A DNA stretch of 28,071 bases from a bacterium (GCA_046485285.1 JAWOHE010000044.1:1-28071); one strand, 5' to 3'. Shown: positions 14,100 to 28,071, counted from the stretch's first letter. Translations and numbers: made by a program. The notes: generated from the sequence alone by a model not told the origin.

Positions 14100-15052
14100 T
14101 GACCGTCGTCATCGACCTCCACTGCGATTCGCTCGAAGCCCACGTCGAGGGCCGGCGCGACATCGCCCGGCGCTCGAACGCCGGCCACCTCGACCTGCCC
14201 CGCCTGGTCGAGGCCGGTGTCACCGCCCAGGTCTTCGCGATCTGGACCGACCCCCGCCGCTACCGCCCCGGCGCGCGCGCCCCGTTCGTATCGAGGACCA
14301 TCGCCGCATTCGACCGGCTCTGTGCCGGACCGGGCCCGCTCGTGCCCGCGCGCCGCCCTGCCGACGTCCGCCCGCGCCCGGGGCGGGTCGCCGGCATCCT
14401 CGCGGTCGAGGGCGGCCACGCGCTCGACGGCTCACTCGCCAGCCTCGCGCGCTTCCATCGCCGCGGGGTCCGGATCCTGACCCTCACCTGGAACAACTCG
14501 AATGAACTCGCCCGGTCCTGCCTCGCCATCGACGGTAACCGTCGCGGCCTCACCCGCCTCGGGCGGTTGGCAGTCGCCCGGATGAACCACCTCGGGATGG
14601 TCGTCGACCTGTCGCACGCCGGCGACCGGACCTTCGCCGACGCGCTCGACGCCAGCACCGCCCCGGTCATCTGCTCCCACTCCGGCTGCCGCGCCCGACA
14701 CGACTTCCCGCGCAACCTCTCCGACGACCAGTTGCGCGCCCTCGGCCGGCAGGGCGGCGTCGTCGGCATCGTCTTCCTGCCCTATTTCCTCACCCGCGCC
14801 CGGCGCCGGGCGACGATCGACGACGTCATCGACCACGTCTGTCACGCCGCCGCGGTCGCCGGATCGGCCGCGGTCGGGCTCGGCTCCGACTTCGACGGTT
14901 TCCGCGACCCGCCGCCGCGCGGCCTCGAGGACGTCACCTGCCTGCCGGCGCTCGCCGACGGCCTCCGCCGCCGCGGCTTCAGCGCAGGCGAAGTCGCAGG
15001 CATCCTCGGCGGCAACTTCCTCCGCGTCTGGCGTGCGGTCGCGGGCGCTTGA
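14099..15052 (+). CDS. Membrane dipeptidase (peptidase M19)
   Basis: DLHCD, GHLDLPRL, AVEGG, LTLTWN, DLSH, SHS, RNLSDDQ and GLGSDFDG. Confidence 0.93.
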   Translation: MTVVIDLHCDSLEAHVEGRRDIARRSNAGHLDLPRLVEAGVTAQVFAIWTDPRRYRPGARAPFVSRTIAAFDRLCAGPGPLVPARRPADVRPRPGRVAGILAVEGGHALDGSLASLARFHRRGVRILTLTWNNSNELARSCLAIDGNRRGLTRLGRLAVARMNHLGMVVDLSHAGDRTFADALDASTAPVICSHSGCRARHDFPRNLSDDQLRALGRQGGVVGIVFLPYFLTRARRRATIDDVIDHVCHAAAVAGSAAVGLGSDFDGFRDPPPRGLEDVTCLPALADGLRRRGFSAGEVAGILGGNFLRVWRAVAGA

Positions 15053-15076
15053 CACCGCTGGCACCGGGACTATTCT
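15049..15076 (+). promoter_or_regulatory. Sigma70 promoter for the CARDB-Kelch gene
   Basis: TTGACA-N16-TATTCT; the -35 overlaps the dipeptidase stop. Confidence 0.65.
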
Positions 15077-15161
15077 GTCTCTGCCCGGTCCCGGGCCGGC
15101 GAGAGCATCGTTCCTCGGAGAGCCAAGCCGGCGCGACGCATCCGGACGAGAGGAGACTGCA

Positions 15162-17813
15162 ATGAGACAGCGTGTCCTGCTTACGTCGGCCGGTTTCCTG
15201 CTGGCCGGTCTGCTATCGGCGCCGGCTGCGGCGCTGGAACCACAGCCCGCCGGGATCGTCGGCACGGCCGAACTTGCACTTGACGTCGGTGTAGAGCATA
15301 TCCTCCAACCGACCGGCGAAGTCCAGGGCGGCCAGCCAGTTATCCCAAGATCCGTTATCCGCAACTTCGGTTCAGAGCAGGCGTCGTTCTGGGCCTTCTT
15401 CGGTGTTGCCGGTGAGTTCATGGATTCCTCCTTTGTTACCGACCTTATGCCTGCGGCTGTTGAGACGTTGGCCTTTCGTTCATGGACGCCTGGGTTCCCG
15501 GGCGTTTTCATCGCATCAAGTTACACGCAGTTGCCAGGCGACGTGAACCCCAACAATGACCGGATTGACTCGATCTTCACTGTCGTCGTGCGCGACCTCG
15601 GCATCACCGCCATCATCTCACCTCCCGACACGCTTGATGTTGGCGAGCAGTTCCTGCCTTCGGTCCGCGTCCTGAACCTGAGCGACGAAACGCACCCGGG
15701 CGTTTGGTGTATTTTCACCATCGACGGCGAGCCGGCTGAAAGCACCGAGACGGGATCGCTCGAGGCGGGTCAGTTAACCGAGGTCGAGTTCGCGATCCGG
15801 TCTTACCCGACGCCCGGCGCCCGACGTGCCCTGTGGCGGCTCCGCATCGCCGATGCCAACCCTGCCAACGACACCGCCAGCCGGGTGTTCTTCGTCCGCG
15901 GCGGCGAGATCGTTGACGCCGCCGCCGTGGCGATACTCTCCCCGGTCGGCTCCGTGGCCGAGTCTGCCTTCGTCGCGACTCGCGCCGTGCTTGCCAACCT
16001 CGGTGGCGCTCAGGCAGACATCCAGGCCTCCTTCGCGATCCTCGATAGCACGGGCAGCGAGGTTTTCGTCGGCGAGTCGTTCGAGTCCTATCCCGCCCAT
16101 TCCGTGGACACGGTCGAGTTCGGCAACTGGGAGGCGCTGCCGAAGGGCCGGTATGCGGTCAGATTCACAGTTGCATCAATCGGGGACATGAACCGGTACA
16201 ACGACACGGTTCTCGTGTCGCTGCGCGTTACCGGTCGCATGCCCGATGTCGGCGTCGCCGATATCGTGGCGCCGGTGGGGACCATCCAGGAAGGGTCAAT
16301 CACGCCACGCGCCCGCATCGCGAACTATGGGGTAACGGTTGAGACATTCCGGACCGTCTTCCGCATCAGCCGTGACGCGAATTTGGTTTATGCCGACACG
16401 ATCACAGTCAGCAACCTCGCGCCCGGGGCGGCCATGACGACGAGTTTCGCCCGCTGGACCGCCGAGATAGGCAGTTATACATCACGCTGCTCGACGATGC
16501 TCGCCACCGACGGCGACCAGTCCAATGATGCCCGCTCCGGCGCTTTCGGCGTGGTCGCCCACATCCCGGACCCGGGCTGGGACGAACGCAAGCCACTTCC
16601 CACCGGTTCGGGCAGCAAGGGTGTCAAGTACGGCGGCGCCCTCGCCTTCACCGAGGGGCTGGACGGCATCGAAGTCTTCGCGCTCAGGGGCAACAAGACC
16701 AGCGACTTCTACCGCTATGACCCGGTCGGCAACGACTGGCACCAACTCGCGCCCGTGCCGGGCGGCTCGACCGGCAAGCCCGTCGCCCGGAGCGGCCAAC
16801 TCTGCTCCGACGGCCTGCGCTCGGTCTACATGACCAAGGGCAACAACACCTCCGAGTTCTGGCGCTACGACCTCGGTGACACGAGCTGGCACCCGCTGGC
16901 TGACGTCCCGCTCGGCCCCAGCGGCAAGAAGCTCAAGGGCGGCACCGACATGGTCTACGTCGAGGAAGGCGCGGTAGCCTGGATATACCTGCTCAAGGGT
17001 GGCAAGACCGACTTTCTCCGGTACAACGTCACCCTCGGGACCTGGGACGACCCGCTCCCGGCCGCGCCGACCGGGATCAAGGCGAAGTGGGACAAGGGCT
17101 CGTTCCTCGTCTACGACGGCGTCGGCACCATCTATGCCCACAAGGCATCGGCCTACGATAAGGGCATCAACCCGCCCCACCACGAGATGTGGGCCTACGA
17201 CCTCGCCGCCGGAACCTGGGGCACGGCGAGCCTCAAGGGCATGCCACTCCATGGCCTGCACGGCGGCTCGGTCAAGAAGAAGAAGTCCAAGGATGGCGGG
17301 TCCGGCATCTGGTACAACGACTTCATCGCCGCGCTCAAGGGCGGCAACACCCAGCAGTTCTTCAAGTACTTCCCGGCCGAGGACTCCTGGGTCGAGCTCG
17401 ACACGATGCCCACCAACGGCTCGACCAACAAGCGGAAGCGCGCCAGCTCCGGCGCCGACCTCGTCACGCTCGGCACCGGCACCGTCTACGCGCTAAAGGG
17501 CAACTCGACCTCCGAGTTCTGGCGCTTCCGGTTCGGCGGCGGCATCGGCGTCGCCGAGCCGCCCGGCCCGCGGCCGGTCGTCGCCGCCCTGACCCTGCGT
17601 CCGAACCCGGCCCGCCGGATCGCGACGCTGGCGTTCCCGGGCTCCGGCCCGGCCGAGGTCTCGCTCTACGATGCCGCCGGCCGCAGCCTCCGGGCCTGGC
17701 GGGTCGAAGGCACCGTCGCCCGGCTCGACCTCGAGGGCATCCCTGCCGGCGTCTACCTTGTCCGCGCCTCGCACGCCGGCCGCGAGCAGACCGTCAAGCT
17801 CGTCGTCCAGTAG
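15162..17813 (+). CDS. Secreted protein with four CARDB/Ig-like repeats, a Kelch-like propeller and a C-terminal sorting domain (883 aa)
   Basis: AGGAG RBS and ATG 15162 followed by a signal peptide. Repeats DVGV..I..P.G....D.NP.ND, Kelch-like LKGNxTxEFWRY repeats, and C-terminal PNP..LYDAAGR..GVYLVR..KLVVQ. Confidence 0.88.
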   Translation: MRQRVLLTSAGFLLAGLLSAPAAALEPQPAGIVGTAELALDVGVEHILQPTGEVQGGQPVIPRSVIRNFGSEQASFWAFFGVAGEFMDSSFVTDLMPAAVETLAFRSWTPGFPGVFIASSYTQLPGDVNPNNDRIDSIFTVVVRDLGITAIISPPDTLDVGEQFLPSVRVLNLSDETHPGVWCIFTIDGEPAESTETGSLEAGQLTEVEFAIRSYPTPGARRALWRLRIADANPANDTASRVFFVRGGEIVDAAAVAILSPVGSVAESAFVATRAVLANLGGAQADIQASFAILDSTGSEVFVGESFESYPAHSVDTVEFGNWEALPKGRYAVRFTVASIGDMNRYNDTVLVSLRVTGRMPDVGVADIVAPVGTIQEGSITPRARIANYGVTVETFRTVFRISRDANLVYADTITVSNLAPGAAMTTSFARWTAEIGSYTSRCSTMLATDGDQSNDARSGAFGVVAHIPDPGWDERKPLPTGSGSKGVKYGGALAFTEGLDGIEVFALRGNKTSDFYRYDPVGNDWHQLAPVPGGSTGKPVARSGQLCSDGLRSVYMTKGNNTSEFWRYDLGDTSWHPLADVPLGPSGKKLKGGTDMVYVEEGAVAWIYLLKGGKTDFLRYNVTLGTWDDPLPAAPTGIKAKWDKGSFLVYDGVGTIYAHKASAYDKGINPPHHEMWAYDLAAGTWGTASLKGMPLHGLHGGSVKKKKSKDGGSGIWYNDFIAALKGGNTQQFFKYFPAEDSWVELDTMPTNGSTNKRKRASSGADLVTLGTGTVYALKGNSTSEFWRFRFGGGIGVAEPPGPRPVVAALTLRPNPARRIATLAFPGSGPAEVSLYDAAGRSLRAWRVEGTVARLDLEGIPAGVYLVRASHAGREQTVKLVVQ

Positions 17814-22446: not shown

Positions 22447-23409
22447 ATGGCGATGACTGCTGAAGGCAAGCCCGTTGCCCCGGTGCCGGTGATGATTGCC
22501 GCCTGGCCCGGGCTGGGCAACGTTGGTGTCGGCGCGGTCCATTATCTCCGGAAGCACCTTTGTGGCGAGAACTGCGCCCGCCTCGACATCAGCGGCCAGG
22601 TGTCCCCGGAGGCGCTCGAAGTCAACCAGGGCATCGGTCGGCTCGCCGTCCCCGAACCCCAGCTCCTCTACTCCGTCGCCGAGCCCCCGCTCCTGCTCTT
22701 CGAGGGGTCGGTCCAGCCCGGCGGCGAGGCCGGCATCCGCGTCGCCGGCGAACTGCTCGACCTCGCCCGCGCGCGCGGGGTCAGGACGGTCTACACCGGC
22801 GCCGCCTTCGCCACGCCGACGAGCGCCCACGACGAGGTCCGCGTCTACGGGGTCGCGACCGACGACCACCTTCGCGCCGGCTTCGGCGCGCTCGGCGTCG
22901 AGCCGCTCGGCGAGGGCCGCATCTCCGGGCTCAACGGGCTCATCCTCGGCCTCGCCGCCGAATGCGGCCTCTCCGGTGCCTGCTTCCTCGCGACGATGCC
23001 CCAGTACGCCGTCCAGGCCCCGAACCCCAAGGCTTCCCGCGCGCTCGTCCGCGTCTTCGAGCGCATCCTCAACACGACGGTCGACTCCTCGGCGATCGAC
23101 CGCGAGGTCGAGGAAGTCGAGCGGCTGCTTGGCGAGTTCGAGAACCGGGTCAACGCCGCTATCAGGAACATCCGGCTCGAGGCCGCCGGCGAGCGGCCCG
23201 GCGCCGAACCCGGCAGCGACGACGACGAGAAGCCCGGGCCGGAACCGCACGAGGTCATCGGGCGCGTCGAGGAGATGTTCGAGGAGGCCGAGAAGGACCG
23301 CAGCAAGGCCGCCCGGCTCAAGGAAGCGCTCGACGCGTGGGGACTCTTCCCGCTCTACGAGGACCGCTTCCTCGACCTCTTCACGCCCCCGCGCCCGCCG
23401 ACCGACTGA
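22447..23409 (+). CDS. PAC2 (proteasome assembly chaperone-like) family protein
   Basis: AAWPGLGNVG, EGSVQP, VYTGAA, ISGLNGLILGLA and PNPKAS; C-terminal YEDRFLDLF. Confidence 0.85.
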   Translation: MAMTAEGKPVAPVPVMIAAWPGLGNVGVGAVHYLRKHLCGENCARLDISGQVSPEALEVNQGIGRLAVPEPQLLYSVAEPPLLLFEGSVQPGGEAGIRVAGELLDLARARGVRTVYTGAAFATPTSAHDEVRVYGVATDDHLRAGFGALGVEPLGEGRISGLNGLILGLAAECGLSGACFLATMPQYAVQAPNPKASRALVRVFERILNTTVDSSAIDREVEEVERLLGEFENRVNAAIRNIRLEAAGERPGAEPGSDDDEKPGPEPHEVIGRVEEMFEEAEKDRSKAARLKEALDAWGLFPLYEDRFLDLFTPPRPPTD

Positions 23410-23415
23410 CGCCGG

Positions 23416-24180
23416 TCAGTCCCCCGGCTCGAAGCCACGGAACGCCGCCCTGAGCCGTGCGATGTCACGGTGGTGGGTCATGTCGAGCTGGAGCGGCGTC
23501 ACGGAGATGAAGCCAGCGTAGACCGCCTCGAAGTCCGACCCCTCGGTCTTCGCGAACGAACTCTCGCCGTCGATCGTGTAGGAAGCGCCGCCGGGCAGGT
23601 GCGCCCGCACCGCCATGTCCCGGTAAATCCGGTGGCCCAGGCTCGTCACCCGCACCCCGCGCGCGCCGTCGCCGGCCGGGATATTGACGTTGAGCAGGGT
23701 CTTTGGCGGCAGCAGCCCGGATGAGAGCATCGGCACCAGCCGGCGCAGGAACGCGACCGCCGCGGACCGGTTGCGGCCCGCCTCGAGGTACGACACCGCG
23801 ACCGACGGCATCCCCAGCATCGCGCCCTCGATTGCCGCCGCGACGGTCCCCGAATAGAGCACGTCGTCGCCGAGATTCGGGCTGTCGTTGATGCCGGAAA
23901 GAACGAGGTCCACCTGACTGCGGAAGATGCCGTAGTGGGCGATGAGCAGGCAGTCGGTCGGCGTGCCCCGGACTGCGTACCACCGCGGCCGCAGCCTCCT
24001 CACCTCGATCGGCTTCCGCAGGCTGAACGAGTGGCTCGAAGCGGACTGGTTCACCGCCGGCGCGACGACGCGGATCCGGCCCAGCCCGCGCAGCGCGTCG
24101 TGGAGGTCGCGCAGTCCCGGCGCCTCGATGCCGTCGTCGTTCGACAGCACAATAAGCGGGCGGCGCTTCGCTCCGGGCAT
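23416..24180 (-). CDS. surE: 5'/3'-nucleotidase SurE
   Basis: SNDDGI.APG, VVAP..NQSASSHS, GTPTDC, SGIN..NLG.DVLYSGTVAAAIEG, LNVNIP and ISVTPL. Confidence 0.97.
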   Translation of the reverse strand: MPGAKRRPLIVLSNDDGIEAPGLRDLHDALRGLGRIRVVAPAVNQSASSHSFSLRKPIEVRRLRPRWYAVRGTPTDCLLIAHYGIFRSQVDLVLSGINDSPNLGDDVLYSGTVAAAIEGAMLGMPSVAVSYLEAGRNRSAAVAFLRRLVPMLSSGLLPPKTLLNVNIPAGDGARGVRVTSLGHRIYRDMAVRAHLPGGASYTIDGESSFAKTEGSDFEAVYAGFISVTPLQLDMTHHRDIARLRAAFRGFEPGD

Positions 24181-24225
24181 CGCAGACTTATACCGTCGGA
24201 TGCCGGGCTGTCAAATCGGCCGCGC
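24055..24225. repeat. Direct repeat copy 1: surE 5' region plus promoter
   Basis: 24055-24146 is identical (92 bp) to 27823-27914. It then stays colinear but diverged through the start codon and promoter. Confidence 0.95.
24187..24214 (-). promoter_or_regulatory. Promoter of intact surE (apparently leaderless)
   Basis: TTGACA-N16-TATAAG, 6 nt before ATG. Both boxes and the spacing are conserved in the second copy. Confidence 0.7.
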
Positions 24226-24318
24226 CCGCCGCGCCCGGCCCGGCCGCCGGGGGGCAGACCGCAGACCGTGCTGAAGCGCGGGCTGGCAACGGTGTTGTGG
24301 CGCAGGGGCTCCGGCAGC

Positions 24319-24346
24319 TTGACACCAGTGGCGGGCGGACTAGAAT
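24319..24346 (+). promoter_or_regulatory. Sigma70 promoter of the island operon
   Basis: TTGACA-N16-TAGAAT, with an AAAGGAGG RBS before ATG 24454. Confidence 0.75.
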
Positions 24347-24453
24347 CAGCCGAGCGTCGGGAGGGGCGGTTCGGCATGCGAGGCCTCGGCCGACAAGAGC
24401 CGGCCGGCAGGCCTCACGTTAGCGAGCTGCCCGAAGTCAACAAAGGAGGCAAC

Positions 24454-26164
24454 ATGAGATGCCATTCGACGCTCTGCGTCTTGGCTACGGTCGCCCTCGC
24501 CGCCTCGATGGCATTGGCCGTGCAGTGGCGGCTGCCGACGTGCGTCACTGAGGACGAGCCACAATGCGGCGACTTCCGCGCGCCGATGAACAACGCCTGG
24601 GGGGGGGCAGTCGTATGACGACCCCCAATGGGTCCACGTAATCTACTCGTACTATCCCACAGCGGGCCCGAACCAGTGCAAGGAGGTCAGGTATGCCCAG
24701 TCGCGGAGCGGAGGACAGGAGTTCCCGATGGAATACCGTCGGACCCTCTCCGACCCGGACGACGAGGACGATGCCTGGACCCCTTCAATTGCGGTCTACG
24801 GGGCAGGCGGAGACAACTACAACGTCATCACGAACTACTTCGATGTGGACACGGACGACGATGAGTACGAGCAGTATTCCATCTTCCAGCGCCGGTCACG
24901 TGACCGCGGCATCAACTGGCTCCCCCGCATCCGGCTCACAGAAGGGAGTGATGAGCTTGACTGCGCCTGGCCATCGCTGGCGGTGAGTCCGCACCCCGGA
25001 CAGCCGGCCGGCGAGTTCCGGGAACACCACCTCTACTGCGAAGAAGACGACTGCACCAACATGCAGGTTACATACCAGCGTATAGACCGCGACATGGACG
25101 AAGCCAGCCCGGACGCGGAGTTCATCACGAGAGCCCTCACTGAGGGTCCGCCTGACCGCGGCAATCCATGCGTGGCGTCGCAGAACGGAGCACTGGTCTG
25201 TGCAGTCTGGTCCGATGACTCGGCCCGCGCTGCGGACGACATCTGGCTGCGCCGCTCCACGAACCAAGGCACGACCTGGCTTGATAAGGTCAACCTCTCC
25301 AACACGCCCAACTACGAGTCACAGGCTCCTTGCATCACCATCGCCGGCAGCGCAGTGTTGGTGGCCTGGCAGGAAGAGAACCCGGCCGACAACCGGTTCC
25401 GGATTCAGTTCAGGCGCAGCGACGACTACGGCGAGTCCTGGTCGGACCCGGTATGCCTGACTGCCGACCTGCCCAGCGGACTCCTCCACAATCAGCCGCC
25501 CGAGTGCTTCACGCCTTCTCTGGCGACGTATAACAACCAGTATGCCTATCTCGTGTTTCAGGCAGGCTGGGACTCGCCGACGCCCGGCTACGGCATCATG
25601 TTCATGATGTCGCCTAACCTCGGCAACCAGTTCTGGCTTCCGGCCTGTGGAATCGGCGGCTGGACTGACGACGAACCGGACCTCGACGACGGAGACGAAG
25701 GCCTGTTCCCGACCATCAGCGTCGCCCAGGGGTCAAGCCCCCTGTACCCGGAGTATCTGAACGTCGTGTATTCCGGGAAACCCTCACCGGTCAGCAACTA
25801 TCAGGTCTACTACCTGCGCGGCACCGAGATCACCAGCACGACTCCGCCGGATGGCGGCCAGAGCACAGCCCGGCTCGGGCTGCCGTCAGGCGCAGGTCTC
25901 AGAGTGTGGCCGAATCCCGCCGAATCCGACATCCGTGCGGAAGTCGAGCTTGTTCGGCCGGGCAAGGTTGAGCTTGCGCTCTACGACGCCCAGGGCCGGC
26001 AGGTGCGGGAGTTGGCTGCGGACAGGGTCGGCGCCGGCCGGCATGGCTTCCGGTTTGACCTGACCGGCCGGGCCGGACAGCGACTGAGCGCCGGCACCTA
26101 CATGCTCGTGCTGCGGACCGCGGACGGAGCCGAGACCCGGCGCTTGCAGGTTGTCAGGAGGTAA
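24454..26164 (+). pseudogene. Secreted acidic BNR/Asp-box (sialidase-like propeller) protein with PDGGQS linker and sorting domain; frameshifted at a G9 tract (569 aa with G8)
   Basis: Signal peptide MRCHSTLCVLATVALAASMALA. Removing one G joins NNAW to GGQSYDDPQWVHVIY..FPMEYRR (the 24728 frame). Asp boxes RSRDRGINW, RSTNQGTTW and RSDDYGESW; C-terminal WPNP..LYDAQGRQV..GTYML. Confidence 0.85.
24599..24607 (+). repeat. G9 homopolymer at the frameshift site
   Basis: gcct-GGGGGGGGG-cagtcg. Confidence 0.9.
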
Positions 26165-26167
26165 CAC

Positions 26168-27817
26168 ATGAACCGCGCCCTTCCCGACGCTCGGTTCGGT
26201 GTCGTCTTTCTGGCGGCGCAGATGGCGCTGTGGTTGCTGGCTCCGGCAGGTGACAGGTTGCTGGCGTTTGAGCCGCTCTGGGCAAGCCGTCTGGTTGATG
26301 AAGGTGCGGGCGGCGTCGCCGCCGTTGCGGTAGACGGGTTTGGCAACACCTACATCACCGGCGGCAGACCGTGGACAGGGGCGTCCAATGCCACCGCCAT
26401 GTATGACCGAGACGGACATCTGGTCTGGGCCGCGCCGTGTACGCTCCCGGACCTTGAGTGGGTGGCCATTGGACTTGACTTGCCTGGCAATGTGTATGTG
26501 ACCGGAACCTCGTACGGCTCGGTCCAGCACATGCAGGTCTGCGACTACGTAGTGGCCAAGTACCGCCCCACCGGGGAGCAGGTCTGGACAGCCCGGTACA
26601 GCCACTGCCCCGACACCTTCCTCAGCTGGGATGGGGCCATGGCCGGCTGCGTTGATGCCGCCGGCAACGTACACGTGACCGGCCGGAGTTACGACACTGA
26701 GACAAGCTGGGACTGCGCCACGGTCAAGTTCGACTCCTCCGGGACTCTGCTGTGGTCAGCGCGGTGGGACGACGGGCTCAACAGGTCTGACGCGGGGAAC
26801 GCGATTACCACGGACCAGCAGGGAAACGTCTATGTGGCCGGCATTGCCAGAGGGACGTATTTCCTTCTCATCAAGTATTCCCCGGACGGTGACCTGCGCT
26901 GGGCTGTGGTGGACTTCGACTCCGACTCCATCTACGGGGACCTGATAGCCGTGGCTGTTGACAGGGCGGGCCATGTCTACGGCTTCGGCTCCGGCGGCCG
27001 CTACGAGCAGGGGCATTCGGACTACTACCTGGCCAAGTTCGACAGCACCGGCCGCAAGCTGTGGCATGCACTCTACGACTGTTACTGGGACGACGCCGGC
27101 TATGCGATGGTCCTGGATGACTCGGCCGGAATCTACGTCACCGGCCTGAGCGACGGCCCGGGCACCGGCTGGGACATCTGCACGGTCAAGTGGGACTCAG
27201 CCGGGAACCGGCGCTGGGTGGCCCGGTATGACCACGCCCGCTGGGGCGACATCGGCGAGGACCTCGCGACCGACGGCAAGTACGTGTACACGGTCGGGAG
27301 GTGCTCGGACCTGGATTCCATCACCTGGACGACAAGCATGTGCTTTGTCACGTGCGATGCCGTCACGGGCGCCATTCTCTGGGCCGCCCCATACCTCTAT
27401 CCCGGCGCTGCGAACGGCGGCGCCACCGCGGTCGCCATCGGGCCGGACGGCAACGTCCACGCGGCCGGTAGCTGCTACGACTCCACCACAGCGGACTATG
27501 TGACCCTGAAATACACACCGTCCGGCACCGGGGTCGTCTCCGAGCCGGGCGAGAGGCGAGAAACCGGGTTTGGCGTCACGCCCAGCCTGTTCAGGGGCGG
27601 GACGAGCATCAGGTATCAAGCACTCCGGCCAGGCCGGGTGCGGATTGCCGTGCTGGACGTGGCCGGAAGGACGGTTACCACGCTCCTCGACGCGGACGTG
27701 CCGAAGGGAAAGGGCGAGGTGACGTGGCAGGCGCGGGACCTTGCCGGCGGGGTCTACTTCGTCAGGCTTGAGAGTTCGGACGGCAGCTTCGGCGAACGGG
27801 TCCTGCTTGTGCGCTAG
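26168..27817 (+). CDS. Secreted SBBP-repeat beta-propeller protein with C-terminal sorting domain
   Basis: Repeats VD..GNVYVTG.S....D....KY...G...W.ARY; C-terminal [28 protein letters not shown] inside the upstream gene end. Confidence 0.9.
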
Positions 27818-27948
27818 GCCGTCGCCGGCGCGACGACGCGGATCCGGCCCAGCCCGCGCAGCGCGTCGTGGAGGTCGCGCAGTCCCGGCGCCTCGATGCC
27901 GTCGTCGTTCGACACGACGACCAGCGGCCGGCGCTTGGCTGAGGGCAT
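27814..27948 (-). pseudogene. surE: Truncated second copy of the surE 5' end (44 aa)
   Basis: Translates [44 protein letters not shown]. Its stop overlaps the SBBP gene stop (CTAG). Confidence 0.9.
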
Positions 27949-27993
27949 TTCAGACTTATAACGGCGGACGGCGCGCTGTCAAACCGGCCGTAC
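27823..27993. repeat. Direct repeat copy 2: surE 5' region plus promoter (TTGACA-N16-TATAAG at 27955-27982, minus strand)
   Basis: 92 bp identical to 24055-24146, then diverged but colinear. Confidence 0.95.
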
Positions 27994-28071
27994 CCGTCCG
28001 CCCGTCGCGCCTTCGCGGCCAAGTCCATTTCCGCTGCCCGTCACTCCGGCCGGAACACAGCGCAGTGGAGA

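Follow-up and report, generated by a model that had tools for sequence, protein, structure and literature searches.

The window analysed here, that is, the whole stretch of 28,071 nucleotides (nt) deposited as GCA_046485285.1 JAWOHE010000044.1:1-28071, is an entire contig from a candidate division WOR-3 member of high guanine plus cytosine (GC) content, this phylum being known from metagenomes only. Its right end harbours an intact surE gene and, beyond two genes predicted to encode surface proteins sorted by the type IX secretion system (T9SS), a second, diverged copy of the promoter and 5' end of surE. The order of the features is surE on the minus strand, a divergent control region of 272 nt, the two cargo genes g1 and g2, a joint of 5 nt, the second surE 5' end (copy B, minus strand) and 75 nt. 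The unit comprised between the surE body and the orphan 5' end measures 3.77 kb, according to the 3768-nt spacing of the two copies. An initial annotation of this DNA had described the locus as an integrase-less two-gene cassette inserted in surE with a duplicated promoter and N-terminus, and the position of two genes between two surE 5' ends is borne out by the coordinates and by the Pfam matches.

Organization of the surE locus

The features delineated at the locus are as follows.

23416..24180, minus strand: intact surE (5'/3'-nucleotidase), 254 amino acids (aa), 5' variant A (MPGAKRRPLIVL...), Pfam SurE E = 7e-52
24055..24228: repeat copy A, surE codons 1-42 and 48 nt upstream, from the repeat search and alignment
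24055..24146, identical to 27823..27914: 92-nt tract with 0 mismatches, made of codons 13-42 preceded by two bases of codon 12, with the SNDDG-coding motif inside
24187..24214, minus strand: predicted promoter A, TTGACA-N16-TATAAG-N6-ATG, read from the sequence (-35 at 24209-24214, -10 at 24187-24192, ATG at 24178-24180)
24319..24346, plus strand: cargo promoter-like site from a consensus scan, TTGACA-16-TAGAAT, 11/12 matches
24454..26164, plus strand: g1, BNR/sialidase-like beta-propeller, signal peptide present, T9SS type A sorting domain (Pfam, TIGR04183), frame broken in G9
24599..24607, plus strand: G9 homopolymer, site of the g1 frameshift (first frame stop at 24616-24618, second frame open from 24590)
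26168..27817, plus strand: g2, full-length SBBP-repeat beta-propeller, T9SS type A sorting domain (Pfam SBBP, TIGR04183)
27814..27948, minus strand: surE stub open reading frame (ORF) of 44 codons, variant B, stop codon overlapping the g2 stop, Pfam SurE positions 1-35
27818..27822: 5-nt non-homologous joint from the g2 stop codon to copy B, with nothing in common with the left flank of copy A
27823..27996: repeat copy B, surE codons 1-42 and 48 nt upstream, from the repeat search and alignment
27915..28071: B-specific tail, the terminal 157 nt of the contig and the sole stretch separating copy B from copy A
27955..27982, minus strand: predicted promoter B, read from the sequence, same hexamers and spacing as promoter A (-35 at 27977-27982, -10 at 27955-27960, ATG at 27946-27948)

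The intact SurE is a full-length member of its family. It matches positions 1-188 of the 189 of the Pfam profile, contains the SNDDG motif, exceeds the cut-off of NCBIfam TIGR00087 (166.8 bits for 135.1) as well as that of NF001490, and shares 85% identity over 99% coverage with a homologue of 253 aa (P0001), the closest database SurE among the matches listed. The Pfam SurE match of the stub is restricted to positions 1-35 of the profile and reaches 31 bits for a cut-off of 22.1. The second surE start, taken as the whole repeat copy B, lies 75 nt from the contig end. As a side observation, the g1 and g2 proteins of the window are present at 100% identity in a large protein database, on a contig listed with the length of the window (28,071 nt), and in this database the window SurE itself is absent, its best match being the one at 85%.

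A direct repeat with a sharp allelic breakpoint

A repeat search of the whole window returned two direct copies of 174 nt, 89% identical and 3768 nt apart, which constitute the only long near-exact repeat of the contig; the runner-up family, 129 nt at 71%, corresponds to two paralogous ABC-transporter genes. The 19 mismatches between the copies all fall in the 82 nt located beyond the 92-nt tract, codons 1-12 accounting for nine and the 48 nt upstream for ten, and this split (0/92 versus 19/82) is far from even (Fisher p = 1.8e-7). The outer edge of the duplicated segment is found 14 nt past the -35 hexamer; further out, the comparison of 27997-28071 with 24229-24727 disclosed no similarity, the local alignment score of 17 being that of shuffled sequences (mean 18). 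The main structural claims of the initial annotation were recovered by this analysis: the identical segment of 92 bp, the concentration of the divergence in the first codons and the upstream region, the sequence TTGACA-N16-TATAAG-N6-ATG in both copies and the start of the repeat 5 bp past the stop codon of the cargo.

The 92-nt tract was compared at the DNA level over codons 13-42 of 13 surE sequences (78 pairs), namely the two copies of the window and those of 11 relatives, the best surE loci of a genome collection (69-81% identical to the window surE). Eight of these relatives come from WOR-3 records and the remaining three, including the best match at 81%, from bacterial metagenome-assembled genomes. 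All 77 pairs other than A/B are at most 82% identical over these codons, and 5 of the 30 residues encoded by the tract differ between P0001 and the window; the identity of the two copies over 92 nt is therefore attributed to recombination and not to conservation. The pair formed by two of the relatives, L008 and L009, is even 89% identical over codons 1-12 and only 73% over codons 13-42. The switch from identity to divergence coincides with the 5' border of the S13 codon, where the SNDDG-coding motif starts. A stretch of 23 nt at this point is common even to the relative with the 81% identical SurE (L011), so that an exchange between diverged DNA molecules can anchor there. Judged from their alignment, copies A and B form a mosaic, one part having a single origin and the other part deriving from two diverged surE alleles.

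The opposite border is of another nature. The stop codon of g2 occupies 27815-27817 and copy B starts at 27823, and the joint between them is devoid of homology to the left flank of copy A, which implies that it is not an assembly-graph join at a shared word and that it exists in some real molecule. The unit would consequently combine two types of junction, a homologous one, placed inside the 92-nt tract or at its border, and the non-homologous one at 27818-27822.

Conserved promoter architecture of surE

The -35/-10 pair of surE, with a spacing of 16-17 nt, was retrieved in 11/11 relatives, where 19-36 nt separate its end from the conserved Pro8 codon; the same pair occurs in only 2.2% of random 75-nt segments taken from the same loci. 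Since 6 nt separate the -10 hexamer from the ATG in the window, the surE mRNA should be leaderless. Taken together, the sequences point to a surE mRNA whose leaderless or near-leaderless nature is conserved, and to a sigma-70-like promoter consensus in this phylum. The surE promoter, abutting the start codon in all 11 relatives, provides a usable example of the shape of a WOR-3 promoter, and probably of leaderless translation.

Promoter B, if active, would drive transcription through the stub and onward, in antisense orientation, into g2. Neither a terminator nor a stable hairpin was detected between g2 and the stub (fold z = +0.98), and on the minus strand downstream of promoter B no terminator-like site was found before 25396. 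The promoter-like site of the cargo genes is the only one reported by the consensus scan of 23300-28071, for a shuffle mean of 0.4.

Nature of the two surE 5' ends

Variants A and B differ by three amino acids (G3S, I10V and L12V, from A to B). Within codons 1-12, 5/12 third positions differ versus 4/24 first and second positions, and none of the ten upstream mismatches falls in the 12 hexamer positions (hand hypergeometric, p about 0.04). These patterns are suggestive of a B-specific part that would be a working allele under selection and not a decayed copy.

The comparison with homologues bears on which of the two 5' ends is the odd one. The intact gene has a full promoter and N-terminus, a diverged second set being located past the insert, and the N-terminus of P0001 (MPGAKPRPLIVL) matches the set of the intact gene, with 11/12 residues in common with variant A and 8/12 with the variant B of the stub. 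The V12 of variant B is found in 1/60 of the nearest homologues (the best 60 of 120 listed), and among the same 60 no full-length SurE with a B-type N-terminus was encountered. If anything, the polarity leans to the stub as the unusual allele. The initial annotation had proposed that incoming DNA carried the surE promoter and 5' end of a related organism, entered by homology or by means of a recombinase acting in trans, and left the old 5' end as a stub. Exchange between lineages is favoured by the sharp breakpoint, and the participation of homology is retained; the polarity of this scenario, with A foreign and B native, finds no support in the resemblance of P0001 to variant A.

Comparison with other surE loci and context of the locus

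Besides the window, 79 other surE loci of the genome collection were compared, the nearest being 81% identical and none belonging to the same species. Any SurE N-terminus match was obtained for 74 of the 80 sources, and two such matches for the window only. Within the flanks examined, a second surE start was found in 0/79 other loci, including 0/11 relatives, and the g1-g2 pair stands beside surE in 0/11 relatives. The suggestion of the initial annotation that surE may be a hotspot for the exchange of surface-protein cassettes is not upheld by these counts, the recurrent upstream neighbours being instead a class IV aminotransferase gene and rpiB, divergent from surE, in 5/11 loci (L003, L004, L005, L006 and L010). 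These five loci all have a lower GC content; the window and the three higher-GC relatives with a readable flank are without this pair. In each of the remaining readable WOR-3 loci the upstream neighbours of surE are different. Beta-propeller genes do occur near surE in L001, L007, L010 and L011, in differing places and none orthologous to g1 or g2; these genomes are simply rich in genes of this kind.

The synteny around surE is not conserved at this distance, MurJ and PAC2 being found in 1/11 loci and on the other side of surE. In the window, PAC2 and surE are convergent, with stop codons 6 nt apart (23409-23416). The MurJ-PAC2 pair is also present in L002 (2098-4841), but upstream of surE; since the pair has moved relative to surE, the surE neighbourhood has been rearranged more than once in the clade. 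Elsewhere on the contig, the housekeeping genes encode two ABC transporters, Fpg, a hybrid-cluster protein, an M19 dipeptidase, an aminotransferase, MurJ and PAC2, and predicted genes for T9SS-sorted surface proteins are interspersed among them.

The g1-g2 pair was recovered in three relatives, with identities of 85, 82 and 67% for g1 and of 64, 80 and 68% for g2, on contigs of 7,967, 16,736 and 10,627 nt. The divergence of the pair among relatives is about equal to that of SurE. No contig of these three sizes occurs among those of the 120 best SurE matches, an indirect hint that in these three relatives the pair lies away from surE and that its adjacency to surE is derived.

The base composition of the cargo gives no indication of a foreign origin, a possibility that was considered and rejected. 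The GC content of the insert is lower (0.62-0.65 versus 0.70-0.745), as is the GC content at third codon positions (GC3) of the cargo genes (0.80-0.82, versus 0.90-0.97 for housekeeping genes), but similar values are found in T9SS genes elsewhere on the contig, with a GC3 of 0.83 for the T9SS gene at 15033-17813 and of 0.69-0.79 for the ORFs at 785-2202. The low GC3 (0.69-0.83) appears as a class-wide split of the T9SS cargo on the contig and is not specific to the insert.

Search for hallmarks of mobile elements

Pfam scans of 26 ORFs of the window (7 + 19, including g1, g2 and the intergenic ORF) revealed no member of the integrase, transposase or recombinase families, and no excisionase or transfer gene either. 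The absence of a recombinase inside the unit, which the initial annotation had reported, is extended to the 26 ORFs scanned on the contig. No tRNA gene was found, and no Rfam match was obtained in 23300-28071. Among the literature matches listed, none concerned surE as an integration site of genomic islands, and surE does not occur in the main text consulted. An insertion sequence or transposon was rejected on account of the lack of a transposase, of the lack of inverted repeats pairing the ends of the unit, and of the size of the duplication (174 nt). Nothing found here shows that the locus is a mobile element.

The closest likeness in layout is with the elements targeting dusA and prfC, which, in the available passages of their description, supply a replacement promoter and N-terminus to the target gene (PMC8409611). 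As in these elements, the target gene is kept whole, with what would be a replacement promoter and an equally long replacement N-terminus, the 5' end that would have been displaced lies beyond the insert, and direct repeats of target-gene sequence, here 174 nt of which 92 are identical, flank the unit at both ends (same passages, PMC8409611). The dusA/prfC elements are at least 22 kb long and encode an integrase and a directionality factor, unlike the present unit of 3.8 kb, for which no recombinase was found on the contig; as far as these passages go, their core is also short, in contrast to 92 identical nt, and no second instance is known here at surE (PMC8409611). With a recombinase inside the element, next to one att site, lacking among the 26 ORFs scanned, and an occupied site recurring in none of the 79 other surE loci, membership in this class was rejected.

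A second likeness concerns the effector modules of type VI secretion system (T6SS) and Rhs loci, for which the consulted part of the literature proposes a displacement of old gene ends in which one end relies on homology and the other is joined illegitimately (PMC5361080). Homology-facilitated illegitimate recombination is the mechanism proposed in these parts for displacement at Rhs, contact-dependent inhibition (CDI) and T6SS effector loci (PMC5361080; PMC3240628). The surE locus would share with them a conserved anchor, an illegitimate other end and an orphan old gene end, and has in common with them the lack of an integrase and a surface or secreted cargo, as far as the excerpt describes them (PMC5361080). 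It departs from the systems of that excerpt, in which the variable 3' end is displaced and orphans accumulate downstream, in that the 5' end and the promoter of a housekeeping gene are involved here (PMC5361080). Moreover, compared with the same excerpt, the orphan is single and the anchor itself is duplicated (PMC5361080).

A simpler structure to consider is the junction of a tandem duplication, which would likewise present a novel joint, from a segment end after g2 to surE codon 42, with a spacing equal to the 3768-nt unit. Unlike what is expected of such a junction, the second copy departs from the first by 23% past nt 92, and past nt 174 the two are unrelated. A recent tandem duplication was rejected, given the 19 mismatches in nt 93-174 and the lack of similarity beyond.

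Cis-mobilizable elements (CIMEs) are islands flanked by att sites and devoid of recombination genes, which are mobilised by the integrase of a related element. The surE unit resembles them as a small cargo-only unit bounded by direct repeats and without a recombinase of its own; it differs from them in that no helper element, att arm sites or second copy are known for it.

Origin of the rearrangement

The explanation that we tentatively place first is a real, one-off rearrangement of the displacement type, brought about by host recombination and not by a self-mobile element. The unit would have brought together a surE 5' end with a leaderless-type promoter, the 272-nt control region and an operon of two T9SS beta-propeller genes. 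Two diverged surE 5' alleles meeting at a sharp breakpoint point to an exchange between lineages; on that side of the unit, a homologous exchange between these alleles, anchored in the SNDDG-coding tract, may have taken place, and the exchange itself, the repair of a heteroduplex, or a later conversion, would have left 92 identical nt. On the other side, an illegitimate join would have been made 5 nt past the g2 stop codon. As an outcome, surE would remain intact, one promoter and N-terminus serving its expression, and the second set would be kept as a 44-codon stub that may still give antisense transcription of the cargo operon. Homologous recombination between the 92-nt direct repeats could, in principle, remove the unit again.

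Several points weigh against this explanation. The sequence specific to copy B amounts to the terminal 157 nt of the contig, about the length of one short read, and a co-assembled relative would give the same picture. A plain single crossover does not predict 92 identical nt in both copies, so that repair or conversion has to be invoked in addition. In the homology-facilitated illegitimate recombination described so far the anchor DNA is replaced, but it is duplicated here, and a duplicated anchor requires a circular intermediate or an exchange between sister chromosomes. The signal of selection on copy B is weak, being drawn from 19 sites, and the location of the g1-g2 pair away from surE in relatives is deduced from an indirect comparison of contig sizes. 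Finally, no empty site, donor or second example was found, a second surE start being absent from the 79 other surE loci.

The first of these points leads to the main alternative, which we regard as rather unlikely and yet as the most serious competitor, namely a chimera at the contig end produced by co-assembly. The last 157 nt (variant B N-terminus, promoter B and 75 nt further) would then stem from the surE orthologue of a rarer, related population in the same sample, the assembler having crossed over at the SNDDG-coding words after the second 92-nt copy. The real genome would in this case have a perfect duplication of the surE 5' end on both sides of g1-g2, or a tandem or circular 3768-nt unit. 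Several observations agree with such a crossing: the contig ends 157 nt past the switch point; the relative with 81% identity already shares 23 nt there, and a closer one could share a whole assembly word; copy B resembles a functional orthologue, with its hexamers kept and changes that are mostly silent or conservative; and the B-type N-terminus was absent from the nearest 60 homologues (of the 120 listed), which would make the source population an unsampled one. On the opposite side, 92 nt is shorter than common read lengths and than the largest common assembler words, and reads would normally span it. The g2/repeat joint would still need a real rearrangement, and only the presence of two alleles in one genome would be removed from the account. 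In its tandem or circular form, the chimera further demands that the graph contain a cycle and that this cycle be left by a wrong path, which makes two coincidences. As a general warning, a structural claim for which the evidence sits in the final 157 nt of a metagenome contig is inseparable from strain co-assembly without reads.

An improbable reading is that of a site-specific element without its own integrase, a cis-mobilizable unit of 3768 nt with the 92 nt as attL and attR and a recombinase provided in trans. Such a unit could exit as a 3768-nt circle, a form of excision already envisaged in the initial annotation, and surE would be a site for swapping surface cassettes. Its order (repeat, replacement 5' end of equal length, cargo, orphan 5' end) is the dusA/prfC layout as given in the available text (PMC8409611), surE is kept intact by the unit, and the repeat begins 5 nt past an intact cargo gene. 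Set against this, no integrase, excisionase or transfer gene was found in the 26 ORFs scanned on the 28-kb contig, and neither the second surE start (0/79 other loci) nor this cargo at surE (0/11 relatives) recurs. The cargo pair lies, in three relatives, on contigs without detectable surE and is diverged to about the same extent as SurE, a pattern for which vertical descent is a better fit than a travelling cassette; in composition, the pair does not differ from other T9SS genes of the contig. Identity over 92 nt, silent sites included, goes far beyond the need of a crossover core, and the A-type N-terminus, supposedly that of the element, is common to the closest relative, P0001.

We give a similarly low credence to an old local duplication, in which the insertion of g1-g2 would have duplicated 174 nt of the native surE 5' region, in the manner of an unusually long target duplication, the orphan copy drifting afterwards while conversion kept 92 nt identical. 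One genome suffices for this scenario and no donor is called for; gene conversion is feasible between direct repeats separated by 3.8 kb, and the clean edge 14 nt past the -35 hexamer, with nothing similar further out, suits it. Drift should however strike the hexamers and the ATG as any other position, and 0/10 upstream changes do so. Neither is there a reason for conversion to halt exactly at codon 12/13 while 23% divergence accrues next to it, and a divergence of 23% with an open frame and an intact start codon in the stub is unlikely without selection.

Least probable of all is a surE 5' end acting as a recombinase-free landing pad, where small surface-protein cassettes carrying their own leaderless surE promoter and first 42 codons would enter by homologous exchange at the ultra-conserved SNDDG tract, orphan the resident 5' end and perhaps leave as a 3768-nt circle by way of the 92-nt repeats; it would provide a reversible, integrase-independent swapping of T9SS surface proteins on top of an on/off switching at the G9 of g1.

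If the displacement by host recombination is real, the locus would be a 5'-end counterpart of the Rhs and T6SS displacements and an integrase-free counterpart of the dusA/prfC elements. It would mean that host recombination alone can build the combination of a replacement gene end and an orphan stub, a layout ordinarily taken as the signature of a site-specific element. The new aspects would be the displacement of a 5' end including its promoter, the lack of an integrase, the involvement of a housekeeping gene and the occurrence in an uncultivated phylum, for a single instance located at a contig end.

Features of the cargo genes

The g1 gene matches the Pfam families BNR_2, FlgD_ig and Por_Secre_tail. 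The type A sorting domain TIGR04183 is recognized in both cargo proteins (33.9 bits in g1 and 25.8 bits in g2, for a cut-off of 23), and Pfam Por_Secre_tail stayed below its own cut-off in the scan of g1 and g2. The C-terminus of g2 aligns to its end with four orthologues, and g2 is full length up to the joint.

The start of g1 was placed at 24454, and not at 24728, which adds the signal peptide and the frameshift in G9. The two frames are bridged by the orthologues P0243 and P0244, and the frameshift occurs just past the signal peptide. Among three g1 orthologues, P0243 alone carries an in-frame signal peptide; the start of P0244 falls right at the equivalent 'GGQSYD', and that of P0242 is unrelated. 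The G9 is the longest of only two homopolymers of at least 7 nt on the contig. The frame break could correspond to phase variation of a surface protein, to a pseudogene or to a consensus error in the homopolymer.

An inverted repeat of 19 nt, 95% complementary, links 24350-24368, in the 5' untranslated region of g1 downstream of the predicted promoter, with 26176-26194, in codons 3-9 of g2. Its chance expectation is about 0.1 in a 6-kb region, as a rough estimate, and its arms could pair within the g1-g2 transcript.

A second BNR-like gene, at about 700-2202, presents an apparent frameshift near 1560-1600, not in a long homopolymer, with a signal peptide in the ORF at 785-1882 and a C-terminal sorting-type tail in the ORF at 1666-2202. 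No BLASTP match at E = 1e-3 or better was obtained between this gene and g1 that would indicate paralogy. If the second gene is truly frameshifted, both frame breaks noticed on the contig fall in genes for surface proteins.

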